Made by a program: the position numbers. 64,000 nt of DNA from a virus (lineage: Duplodnaviria; Heunggongvirae; Uroviricota; Caudoviricetes), in the IMG/VR virus record IMGVR_UViG_2724679237_000005, positions 1 through 64,000 of that record; one strand, 5' to 3'. Shown in pieces: positions 27,001 to 30,000 of this stretch; positions within the stretch are counted from its first letter, which is position 1, and each line of letters starts with the position of its first letter.

Positions 27001-30000
27001 CCAACTGGAAAAACAAAAATCCCAACTACACGAGCCAAGGTCATGCCAGCCTGAAACTGGAGATCGCCAGAGCAAACAAGTTTTATAATGTTCGATACCC
27101 AACCGGCGGCCATGAGGGCCAGAATTGCCAGCCAAATTTTTCCAAAATGATTTGAAAACCAGTTCATACAACCGCCTTAGTCACAGCATGATCCTGAGTA
27201 ACTGGATGAACTTGAGGTATCGCATCCACCGCCATCCCATCCAGAGTGACAGGACGCTCCACTGGAGTGGTGGTAATTGTCGTCGACGAAGGTGTGGTGA
27301 TGGATGAATCCGGCATCAAAAGGCTCTGACCGGCTGGAACGGCTACCGTCGCCAGTGAAACTATAATGAGAACGTAGGCCATTGGTTTCAGCCTCTTTCT
27401 TTGAAAATTTTCCATCCGAACGGTCCTTGTTGTTTTTCTCCTTCACTAAAGGCCGTGCATTTTTCGCTTCACATGAAGAACTGGAGGTTACAATCGCCCC
27501 CACGTTCGCAACAACTGACGCTTGCTTATCTAAACGTGCCTTCAGCACCAGAACGGTAGTTTCCAATTCATCAAGACGTGACAGAAGGCGACCGCTAAAT
27601 AATTCGGCCAAAATTTGACGTAAAGAACGAGGGCGTTTAGTTGCAGGAGTTAAAAAAAATTGACGTGCCATATGGACTCCATCCAGTGTCAGAAAGAGTT
27701 GCGGCTGGCGATTGCCAGCCGCCTTTCTCGTTCCATCCTGGAACTGTGTCTTACCGACACATTGTCATCCTGACGCCGATAAGATACATGATTTAAAATG
27801 ATAGGTAAACACTTACTTACTACTTGTTATAAACAAAACCAATATCTTTCTTGTGAGGCATATCTGCTGCGGAAAAAGCTGCGATCTTCGCGAGTCGATC
27901 ACATATTTCATTTTCACGATGCCCGGCGTGGCCTTTAACCCACTTCCAGCGAACATTATGTCGACTTGCGGCCTCATCCAGACGCTTCCACAGATCAACA
28001 TTCTTTACCGGTTTTTTGTCAGAAGTCATCCATCCATTGCGTTTCCACCATTTCATCCACAGTGTCATGCCGTTTTTCAGATACTGGCTATCAGAGTGCA
28101 AAATAACGTTGCATGGATATTTCAAACGCTCCAGCCCGATAAGTGCCCCCATCATCTCCATGCGGTTATTGGTGGTGCTATGAAAACCATCTGAGAACTC
28201 GCGTTCCTCTCCACGATACTGAAGAACGATACCGTAACCGCCCGGGCCACCCGGATTTTTAAGGCAAGAGCCATCACTGAAGATTTTCACGGTTTTAAGC
28301 TGGGGATTGAACTCTACGACAGGCGTTGTGGGATTGGTGCGGGGAGAATTTTTGTTTTTGGCTTTTTTGCGAGTTTTTGCTTGCGATCGGGCTGGTGTCT
28401 TCGTCGTCATATAAACTCCTGAATCAAGCGCCGCGCCGATTTTTTCCTCGCGCGTGCGCACACGCGTGCGTGTTAATAATTATTAAAATAAACAAATTAC
28501 TTCCCAGAACAGGTTTTTATAAACCTGAACTGAACGAACGAAGTGAGTGAAGTTCACCTCGAACGAAGTGAGAGGTTGTCTTTTCAGGTAATACTCTCCC
28601 AGGGAGGTGAGTATAAAATTCCTCACCAACCTGGTCGTTTCATAACCTGAAAAGCTATGGTCTAAGTCTACTGCCAGCTTAGACTTGGGAAGTTATGGAT
28701 GACAGCACCCCAGAACCGAGATCTTCCCACACTTTATGAAGGGGAGTACTGGATTCAACCTCTCGAAACCCCCCAGACTCGACAATCATAAAGTGACCCT
28801 TGTCTCTGCTCACTTTGGTTCCCCCTTCCCCGACACCTAAACGGCACCAGTTCTACGCTGGTAGTGAGCTTTTTTAAACCTGACGCCAGTGACGCTTACC
28901 CCCACCCATCAGGTCGAGTCTCCAGTCTACGACTGGAAACTATCAGATCTTAGCACTTACAATTCATCTTATGAATAGTTTGTACTTATCTATCATTGCG
29001 ATTGATTATTTTCTCGACCATGTAGTTGAACATTCAAGGCAAACACCTCGTTGATCAACTCACCTAAAAGCTGTTCAACAAGTTCGCGATGCTCCCCAAG
29101 ATGCAAGCACTTAATTGCCCATTCGTACAAGTTGAAAGCCTGCTCGCGATCTTTCATCATTTCACGGGCTTGGGCCAGAAAATCGCTCTCTACGAGCGCA
29201 ACGACATTAGTCGGGTATGACATGTTAGTTTTCCTTAAAGTGGTTCATAAAATCGATTTTAAAGCGTCTGGGAAGGGGTTCTAGTGGATTCTGTAGTGAT
29301 GTTCAGGTCTGGAGTCTCTGATACAAAACAGCCTGCTTCTGTATATTAATAATTAATATGTAGTTATTTATATATACAGAAGCAGGCTAATTACAGACGC
29401 CAGAACAAACTAAGCAGCCTTCTTTGATGGTCTTTTTTTCCTGATCACATTCGCAGGATCATACCCTCCCAGACTTTTCATGACGTCCAAAGGGATCTTG
29501 CTTATAGAGTGCCCAGCGTCCTGACAGAATCCTCGAAAAACAACGAGCATACTGCCACCGGGGTTGATGTTTACTTCTACCTGACCCAAATTGACGTCAG
29601 GCTCGACAAACGCTACGCGGCCACCAGACAGAATAATCGTCTCATTCGCACACTCTGTTGCACGCTCATACCACTTTGTATCGAGGGATTGAGGAATTAG
29701 CATCACTGTTGTAACTCCGCGAGCCTGCTCACGTATAGCCGCATCAATCCAGGGGGAGATTTTGGAGTAGGGTGGATTGAGGAAGGCAATTGTACCTGGC
29801 TGTCCCCATTCAGATTTCAAAGCATCACGCTCAACGCCTATGAAATTAGGCAGCTTTGCATTGTCCTTGTTGCAGGCAACGTCAACATCAAATGTCACTC
29901 CAAGATAACGTTGAATGGCAGAAAACAGCCAGTCAGGTGTTCTCCAGAGGTCACGAAGAGAGTTGTCGCGCTTTCGCTGTTTGATTTTTTCGGCTGCAAT

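Follow-up and report, generated by a model that had tools for sequence, protein, structure and literature searches.

We found that the longest gap free of open reading frames (ORFs) in a 64,000-nucleotide stretch of viral DNA (IMG/VR record IMGVR_UViG_2724679237_000005, positions 1 to 64,000; this whole stretch is called the window below) probably holds a separate minus-strand gene for a structured non-coding RNA (ncRNA) of ~450 nt, which would be an independent stable RNA specific to phage-plasmids of the SSU5/pHCM2 type. The gap (28411-28992) lies between a gene for a 76-aa protein and the RNase HI gene (rnhA). A first reading based on the sequence only had called it unusually long for a spacer, and it measured 589 nt against a median of 23 nt for the gaps of the window in a crude greedy ORF call. 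The 582-base gap region matched 685 PLSDB plasmids and 12 phage records, among them Salmonella phage SSU5 and Escherichia phage Cyrano, and the window is, judged from these matches, an SSU5/pHCM2-type phage-plasmid. The matching plasmids came from Klebsiella, Escherichia, Enterobacter, Salmonella, Citrobacter, Cronobacter and Shigella, and nearly all of them were typed as non-mobilizable. The genes flanking the gap all lie on the minus strand, in the same sense as the RNA, so that the gap was correctly placed upstream of RNase H by the sequence-only reading.

Conservation of the gap was analyzed in 72 IMG/VR contigs collected via the 76-aa protein, together with SSU5 and Cyrano, which gave 67 distinct sequences. 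The core of the gap (28910-28495) was 92-100% identical to the window in these homologues, with several 20-nt bins at 100%, whereas the flanking coding sequences reached 77-89% in bins of the same size. The conserved block starts abruptly at ~28918 and ends at ~28495. Conservation of a non-coding block beyond that of the adjoining genes must reflect selection on the block itself, and this block is the most conserved non-coding stretch that we found in the window of the element's replication region. The RNA was present in 232 of 5,426 complete E. coli genomes, nearly always on a plasmid, and its copy in Cyrano (plasmid pLF82) was 97% identical to that of the window. Searches with blastn in its 'distant' setting, exact motifs, nhmmer and the covariance model R1 detected the RNA in this phage-plasmid lineage only, with one copy per element. 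Against phages and plasmids, the 'distant' blastn search returned the SSU5 family only, always at 80% identity or more, and the exact invariant motifs recovered the same ~74 contigs in IMG/VR, eight further 16-mer matches being due to chance. RefSeq records annotated with PGAP carry no feature at the RNA, and most records leave it unannotated.

The conserved block folds, and it does so in a strand-specific manner. RNAalifold was run on 59 distinct sequences in the minus-strand orientation and gave a consensus of 135 pairs in 18 helices (H1-H18), in which 99.6% of 7,959 cells were canonical pairs. Compensatory changes were observed at 12 pairs (177 cells), compared with 2-3 pairs and at most 22 cells in controls in which the 3' partners were slid by 1-3 columns; this control is a fair comparison because unrelated column pairs in the alignment also look compensatory. 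None of 500 shuffles reached the observed paired fraction or covariation score. Direct compensatory support was obtained for H1, H2, H3, H8, H13 and H18, and the remaining helices, being invariant or varying on one side only, were neither supported nor contradicted. With regard to strand, 841 cells were G-U pairs, which fit the minus strand only (the same pairs read on the plus strand were 89.3% canonical), and the RNAalifold energy was -159.5 for the minus strand versus -124.8 for the plus strand. It is thus the minus strand, in the same sense as the genes on either side, that folds. At -168.6 kcal/mol, the minimum free energy of the window's own minus-strand RNA lay below that of dinucleotide-shuffled sequences (z = -4.9). 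Like any complement, the plus strand is structured too, yet less stable. A search of column covariation for additional pairs or pseudoknots was uninformative, the clade structure swamping the signal, and a possible GAAGGGG/CCCCUUC pseudoknot in the folding model involves invariant bases only.

The folded RNA is predicted to extend from ~28940 to 28485 on the minus strand. At its 5' terminus, hairpin H1 (28918..28940) differs in sequence from clade to clade with its pairing kept, four of its seven pairs having changed on both sides (for example CG/UA/AU and AU/GC). The conserved core then begins with the long hairpin H2 (28877..28915), which contains GGGUGGGGG, is paired in 100% of cells and shows AU to GC exchanges, in either direction, at two pairs and CG to UA exchanges at one. 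It is followed by the multi-branch domain H3-H5 (28808..28869), in which an H3 pair appears as UA, CG or UG and where GGGGAAGGGGGAACCAAAG (~28831-28813) is invariant, purine-rich and mostly unpaired. H6/H7 (28806-28796 with 28576-28570) close a central domain of four arms, namely H8-H10, H11-H12, H13 and H14-H15. The first three of these (28660..28795) include the invariant arm UGGGAAGAUCUCGGUUCUGGGGUGCUGUCAUCCAUAACUUCCCA and the hairpin GUCUAAG/CUUAGAC, and the covariance model R1 found a single copy in the window. The fourth (28580..28654) consists of the nested stems CUUUUCAGG...CCUGAAAAG around GGUGAG...CUCACC; since these stems are nearly invariant, their pairing rests on thermodynamics and not on covariation.

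Several of these parts had been noticed in the sequence-only reading and were recovered as described there: the long-range pairing CTTTTCAGG/CCTGAAAAG (28580-28592 and 28642-28654) corresponds to H14, the enclosed GGTGAG/CTCACC hairpin (28599-28611 and 28622-28634) to H15, and the GTCTAAG/CTTAGAC hairpin (28660-28684) to H13. The repeated units, CGAACGAAGTGAG on the plus strand, occur at 28535-28547 and 28560-28572 and nowhere else in the 64 kb, a number equal to the chance expectation, and both copies are invariant across all homologues. In the RNA they appear as direct repeats of CUCACUUCGUUCG (28572-28560 and 28547-28535) flanking CGAGGUGA in an invariant module (28535..28572), where CGAGGUGA could pair with either copy to form mutually exclusive hairpins of -8.2 and -10.9 kcal/mol. 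A conformational switch beside the terminator is therefore possible in the folding model, an idea we infer only, because the invariant module offers no variation for testing it. Downstream of this module, hairpin H18 (28533-28504) varies in sequence with its pairing kept (UA and GC exchanged). After GGGAAGUAA it is followed by a tract rich in U (28496-28485), which is only weakly developed in the Klebsiella clade. Judged from their sequence, H18 and the U-tract (28485..28533) are probably an atypical intrinsic terminator and the 3' end of the RNA.

At the other end, a sigma-70 promoter was predicted on the minus strand (28947..28975), with a -35-like TTCATA (28975-28970), a 17-nt spacer and an extended -10 element TGcTAAGAT (28955-28947). 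The TGnTAnnAT pattern occupies the same alignment column in all clades (as TAAGAT, TAAAAT, TACAAT, TAGAAT or TAGGAT) while its surroundings drift. Because this element stays in place, transcription is predicted to start at ~28940, the first base of H1.

Expression of the region was examined in the RNA-seq data of E. coli LF82, the strain that carries phage Cyrano as plasmid pLF82, as re-analysed by Misson et al. 2023 (PMC9928086). In Cyrano, the 76-aa gene is CYRAN_80, the RNase H gene is CYRAN_82, and a 135-nt coding sequence annotated inside the core is CYRAN_81, which in that paper is a 'moron' expressed 12-fold over the prophage background. In lysogeny broth (LB), the fragments per kilobase per million (fpkm) were 117 for CYRAN_81, 9.5 for CYRAN_80 and 8.4 for CYRAN_82 (PMC9928086, Table 1 and S1 Table). 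On the log2(fpkm+5) scale of the S1 Table, CYRAN_81 reached 6.8-6.9 in LB overnight, 9.0-9.3 and 6.9 after 1 h and 6 h in Dulbecco's modified Eagle medium (DMEM), and 8.2-9.0 and 10.3 after 1 h and 6 h in macrophages. The corresponding values were 3.1-3.4, 4.2-4.6, 4.1, 5.1-5.8 and 5.0-5.2 for CYRAN_80, and 2.6-3.4, 3.8-3.9, 4.3-4.4, 4.0-4.7 and 4.8-5.0 for CYRAN_82. Thus, in LF82, where the element is a quiescent plasmid in lysogeny, the RNA region was 12-40 times more abundant than both of its neighbors, and its level rose ~10-fold inside macrophages. Its profile resembled those of the putative repressor and the integrase, and few other parts of the element were transcribed in lysogeny. The ~12-fold lower expression of the 76-aa gene requires a promoter between that gene and the core, and the presence of RNase H mRNA at background beside an abundant RNA requires termination or processing before rnhA. 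The region therefore combines, as an independently transcribed ncRNA should, a compensatory structure on one strand with a discrete transcript and a promoter and 3' end of its own, the two ends being predicted. The transcript and the covariation, on which the ncRNA candidate of the sequence-only reading had been made to depend, both came out in its favor.

The conserved block has no coding capacity. CYRAN_81 corresponds to a 44-aa ORF starting with GTG (28813..28679, minus strand), whose frame is interrupted by shifts or stops in L033, L063 and the large Klebsiella clade (L045), three clades in which the nucleotide sequence is conserved nonetheless. Stops or indels between clades also break other short ORFs (of 11, 6 and 48 aa), and the core is conserved without codon periodicity, whole 20-nt blocks being identical throughout. 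CYRAN_81 is thus not a protein gene and its annotation is an error. The same applies to the start of SSU5_090, the 'RNase H' of SSU5 (NC_018843), a 765-nt coding sequence that begins inside the 3' region of the RNA; the conserved start gives a protein of ~200 aa. The earlier statement that the gap has no ORF of 60 aa or more was right for the core, but failed at the 3' edge, where two mechanical ORFs intrude, a 74-aa ORF starting with TTG (28326..28550, plus strand) and a GTG-extended RNase H frame reaching up to 28461.

From these data, we infer how the RNA may end, act in trans, meet its partners and serve the element. Its own extended -10 promoter would fire just past the stop codon of the 76-aa gene, hairpin H1 would protect the start of the RNA, and ~18 helices would fold around the closed four-arm central domain, until the RNA ends at the hairpin and U-rich tract ahead of rnhA. 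The 3' hairpin would also insulate rnhA from the strong promoter of the RNA. The product would build up in the lysogenic (plasmid) state, in which the neighboring lytic replication genes are silent, and would work as a free, stable, tertiary-structured molecule, probably bound by protein, rather than as an mRNA or a simple antisense regulator. The most likely contact surfaces would be the invariant, mostly unpaired GGGGAAGGGGGAACCAAAG, the two CUCACUUCGUUCG repeats and an internal loop with the self-complementary AGAUCU. A free ribonucleoprotein (RNP) or tertiary-structured RNA is favored over a seed-type antisense RNA because the invariance extends over long blocks and covers loops as well as both strands of helices, and an antisense regulator is also disfavored by the lack of a complementary target in the 64 kb. 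As a large RNP with tertiary structure, the RNA could also have a role directed at the host during lysogeny.

Some observations weigh against an independent RNA. Both of its ends are sequence predictions. Nine nucleotides separate the last strong hairpin from the U-tract, and this tract is poor in the Klebsiella clade; termination could thus be incomplete, or the RNA could undergo processing. The LF82 libraries were stranded (TruSeq), but PMC9928086 is silent on strand-aware counting, and a terminated rnhA leader would give an identical RNA-seq picture. With regard to structure, ~60% of the helices are invariant and hence outside the reach of covariation, many of the compensatory changes are clade-level events, and phylogeny alone generates many spurious 'covarying' column pairs in the alignment. 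Finally, neither a partner nor a target emerged, as no complementarity to the RNA of more than 12 nt was found within the window and the neighboring proteins are without function assignment.

The best surviving alternative, that the gap is a long regulated 5' untranslated region of RNase H, had already been raised in the sequence-only reading and appears weakened by the comparisons made here; we regard it as rather unlikely. In this case, the promoter at ~28950 would drive the rnhA operon and the 450-nt structure would sense a signal in the manner of an attenuator or riboswitch, the CUCACUUCGUUCG/CGAGGUGA module choosing between terminator and read-through, with nearly all transcripts stopping before rnhA in lysogeny. 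The RNA does lie directly upstream of rnhA on the same strand and carries a hairpin and U-tract at its 3' end, two mutually exclusive hairpins are possible in its 3' module, and an abundant leader followed by a silent rnhA is the picture expected of an attenuator in its OFF state. The gene order of SSU5, a constitutive leader RNA followed by an operon with an anti-repressor, also recalls the immunity leaders of P4 CI, N15 CA and P1 c4. However, 450 nt and 18 helices exceed known leaders, and no riboswitch, T-box or C4 family of Rfam matched. Among 46 loci with a more distant phage RNase HI (43-56% identity), nhmmer and the R1 covariance model found no such RNA, and most of them lack an upstream gap altogether. 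An AT-rich spacer and a GC-rich palindrome intervene before rnhA and could hold a promoter or operator of its own. In plasmid p788309_2 (CP091393.1), a natural insertion of ~3 kb, an ISEcp1-blaCTX-M-15-wbuC unit, parts the two: it falls in the AT-rich spacer at the equivalent of ~28478, between the U-tract and rnhA, and leaves the RNA intact. Moreover, rnhA tracks the 10-fold rise of the RNA no more than other phage genes do. It was low in all five RNA-seq conditions, none of which was lytic induction.

Less probable still is that the RNA is a replication pre-primer forming an R-loop, that is, that it marks a second, RNA-primed origin beside a Rep3/iteron origin, comparable to ColE1 RNA II, T4 oriF/oriG or the mitochondrial light-strand promoter (LSP) and conserved sequence blocks (CSB). 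A transcript rich in G-runs would form a persistent hybrid at the AT-rich spacer, and trimming by the RNase HI of the element would leave a 3'-OH that primes the Pol III-type replisome encoded by the same element. In line with this, the RNA adjoins an element-encoded RNase HI within a module for replication and nucleotide metabolism (split Pol III alpha, gp32-like single-stranded DNA-binding protein, flap endonuclease, RecA-like protein, ribonucleotide reductase and ThyX, along with dihydrofolate reductase and SbcCD-like proteins), is similar in size to RNA II, and is followed by an AT-rich stretch without sequence constraint. It also contains 10 runs of at least three G and 3 runs of at least five G, which places it in the top 1% of minus-strand segments of the same length in the window. 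On the other side, no positive sign of origin function was seen. No plus-strand unit or promoter resembling RNA I was found and the Rfam RNAI family did not match; the only plus-strand promoter-like site of a crude consensus scan (28934-28963) points away from the RNA. The Rep3 initiator of the plasmid mode and its repeats are located at a distance of 17 kb, the RNA abounds in lysogeny, a state without lytic replication, and an insertion that separates the RNA from the DNA downstream of it is tolerated. Furthermore, plasmid pFY-1.p1 (NZ_CP090793.1), probably a degraded phage-plasmid, carries the IS3-like element ISSen4 directly after the 76-aa gene, at the usual site of the RNA and rnhA; neither of them is annotated in the 4 kb past ISSen4, and it persists as a 139-kb plasmid.

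We consider it very unlikely that the stems act at the DNA level, as palindromes or single-stranded hairpins in a protein-binding origin, a packaging site or a single-strand initiation signal. G-T pairs are tolerated in single-stranded DNA too, the two invariant direct repeats are iteron-like, and invariance of loops and stems alike would suit protein-DNA contacts; but the maintenance of 18 helices over 450 nt with strand-specific wobble pairs, the conserved promoter and the discrete abundant transcript all point to an RNA, and the repeat is found nowhere else in the window. Finally, a small protein, as the sequence-only reading had also allowed, is barely credible, be it the 44-aa ORF, which is annotated as coding sequence in Cyrano and listed as an expressed 'moron', or a toxin mRNA such as those of hok, which are ~400 nt long, highly folded and abundant, because no small ORF stays intact across the homologues (frameshifts or stops occur in three clades), codon periodicity is missing and there is no Pfam or Rfam match.

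Beyond the favored ncRNA, the surrounding sequence holds further features. Upstream in the direction of transcription are a Dam-like methylase gene (30003..29410, minus strand) and the 76-aa gene (29223..28993, minus strand). Directly after the stop codon of the latter, a degenerate palindrome of ~20 bp with the consensus ATAGGTAAGTACTTACCTAT (28975..28992, minus strand) marks the end of that cistron, its counterpart in SSU5 being the perfect GGTAAGTACTTACC. On the minus strand this palindrome recurs 11 times with at most 3 mismatches, compared with 1.5 expected (11362-11375, 23753-23766, 27804-27817, 28975-28992, 30018-30031, 34853-34866, 39569-39582, 44253-44266, 49229-49242, 52749-52762 and 61786-61799). 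Nearly all copies lie between minus-strand genes, several immediately downstream of a stop codon or a short distance ahead of a ribosome-binding site, and from its sequence context the palindrome could act as an mRNA 3' hairpin, in processing, or as a site bound by a phage regulator. Downstream of the RNA, the alignment dissolves past the U-tract in the AT-rich, indel-rich spacer (28484-28468, minus strand), a spot of the backbone (~28478) that has taken up resistance cargo in p788309_2. Next, still ahead of the RNase H ribosome-binding site, comes a conserved GC-rich palindrome, ACGCGTG-TGCG-CACGCG (28467-28451, minus strand), whose 4-nt center reads CGCA in other clades, the reverse complement, as though the loop were inverted. 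We rejected this palindrome as a terminator since no T-run follows it on either strand; it could serve as an operator, or form a hairpin in the 5' untranslated region of rnhA. The ribosome-binding site AGGAG, also outside the RNA (in the 28411..28484 segment, minus strand), stands just upstream of the ATG at 28410 of rnhA (28410..27820, minus strand), whose product matches Pfam RNase_H (PF00075, E 7.6e-44). Scans of the neighboring proteins with Pfam and PHROGs revealed no RNA-related function. An anti-repressor gene that lies downstream in SSU5 is absent from the version in the window.

Elsewhere in the window, a 21-bp tandem repeat (45262-45313) is located at the 5' end of the Rep3-type plasmid initiator gene (45238-46452, plus strand), and the second-longest ORF-free gap of the window (46453-46997) follows that gene; gene, repeat and gap are probably the plasmid-mode replicon with its iterons. 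Two minus-strand genes, for a full-length methionyl-tRNA synthetase (14479-16641; tRNA-synt_1g and tRNA-binding domain) and for a 1,211-aa intimin/invasin-like inverse autotransporter (18258-21893), are unusual phage cargo. In addition, a G/T-rich stretch without convincing genes (12950-13700; GC skew +0.35, AT skew -0.30) contains three exact copies of TGGGTAATGGC (13153, 13266 and 13401) and a near copy at ~13064, and may be a cis site, for example a packaging, partition or origin region.

The Rfam scan proposed in the sequence-only reading returned no match for the gap, and none was obtained for the whole window with Rfam 15 at gathering thresholds, be it to GOLLD, ROOL, OLE, raiA, HEARO, RNAI, C4, 6S, tmRNA, RNase P, the riboswitches or any other family. 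At E <= 10, the 28200-29300 segment gave six chance-level matches only, the best with E 0.078 and 21 bits, versus a gathering threshold of 56. ARAGORN found neither tRNA nor tmRNA in the window, and in the literature we found no description of this RNA. Because no known family matches, the RNA appears from these searches to be a new family of an already known kind, the large structured ncRNA carried by a temperate phage. A retron msr-msd or an ncRNA of the DRT type received no support, as no reverse transcriptase domain was present in the scanned neighbors and the downstream protein matched Pfam RNase_H only; the label 'Reverse Transcriptase 3' given to that gene in Cyrano refers to the RNase H-like domain. 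A CsrB-like sponge was rejected, since GGA motifs were not enriched in the RNA by our own count. Duplex folding of the RNA against all translation-initiation regions yielded no outlier, this method being unreliable at such a length. The pattern CACTTCGTTCG-N14-CACTTCGTTCG, which describes the invariant repeat of the RNA, also matched tandem arrays of 25-nt period in GTDB genomes (e.g. TTGGTTGAGTCACTCACTTCGTTCG). Seventeen such loci (L075-L081, L083-L085 and L087-L093) were observed, versus ~0.07 expected by chance according to our estimate, in metagenome-assembled genomes of Saprospiraceae, Bacteroidales, Planctomycetales, Acidobacteriota, Deltaproteobacteria and Kryptoniota, often at contig ends. 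These arrays, from distant phyla, matched no Rfam family and appear mostly unrelated to the RNA.

Phage-plasmids of the SSU5/pHCM2 type are common in clinical Enterobacteriaceae and carry resistance genes, and in one plasmid (p788309_2) blaCTX-M-15 was inserted right beside the RNA. Calling the locus an RNA gene corrects existing annotations (the 'hypothetical protein' and moron CYRAN_81, and the start of SSU5_090) and adds a family that Rfam lacks. It also provides a defined target, with promoter, helices and invariant loops, for the study of how lysogeny, replication or host interaction is controlled.

When compared with known systems, the RNA shares features with several classes. The hok/sok-type toxin mRNAs are comparable in size (about 400 nt), folding, stability, location on a plasmid and abundance in the carrier state, but the RNA lacks a conserved toxin ORF and a detected antisense partner. 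Like riboswitch and attenuator leaders, it precedes a gene of the same orientation, ends in a terminator-like structure and could form alternative hairpins, but it is much larger, matches no known aptamer and has no equivalent in front of other phage RNase H genes. ColE1 RNA II, T4 oriF/oriG and the mitochondrial LSP transcript are likewise structured transcripts of ~0.5 kb with G-runs, and, as for such R-loop primers, the RNA adjoins RNase HI in a replication module with an AT-rich stretch downstream; it differs in that no antisense RNA I unit or Rfam RNAI match was found and in that a plasmid without the annotated RNA region (pFY-1.p1) persists. The immunity RNAs P1/P7 c4, N15 CA and P4 CI resemble it in being expressed in lysogeny from a constitutive promoter in early DNA with a terminator after them, as well as in the anti-repressor gene downstream in SSU5, and the 3' direct repeat flanking a complementary segment is similar to the seqA-seqB-seqC arrangement of P4. 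These RNAs are, however, ~70-80 nt after processing versus ~450 nt here, the C4 family of Rfam does not match, no complementary target exists in the window, and its version of the element is devoid of the anti-repressor. GOLLD, ROOL and similar large 'ornate' ncRNAs of bacteria and phages (also OLE and raiA) are without homology to the RNA in sequence or structure (no Rfam match even at E <= 10), and the RNA differs in belonging to a single phage-plasmid lineage of Enterobacteriaceae hosts; in addition, GOLLD is reported to rise during lytic growth, whereas the RNA is abundant in lysogeny. Nevertheless, it shares with this class a length of several hundred nucleotides, many helices, the absence of coding capacity, carriage by a temperate phage and a conservation above that of the neighboring genes.

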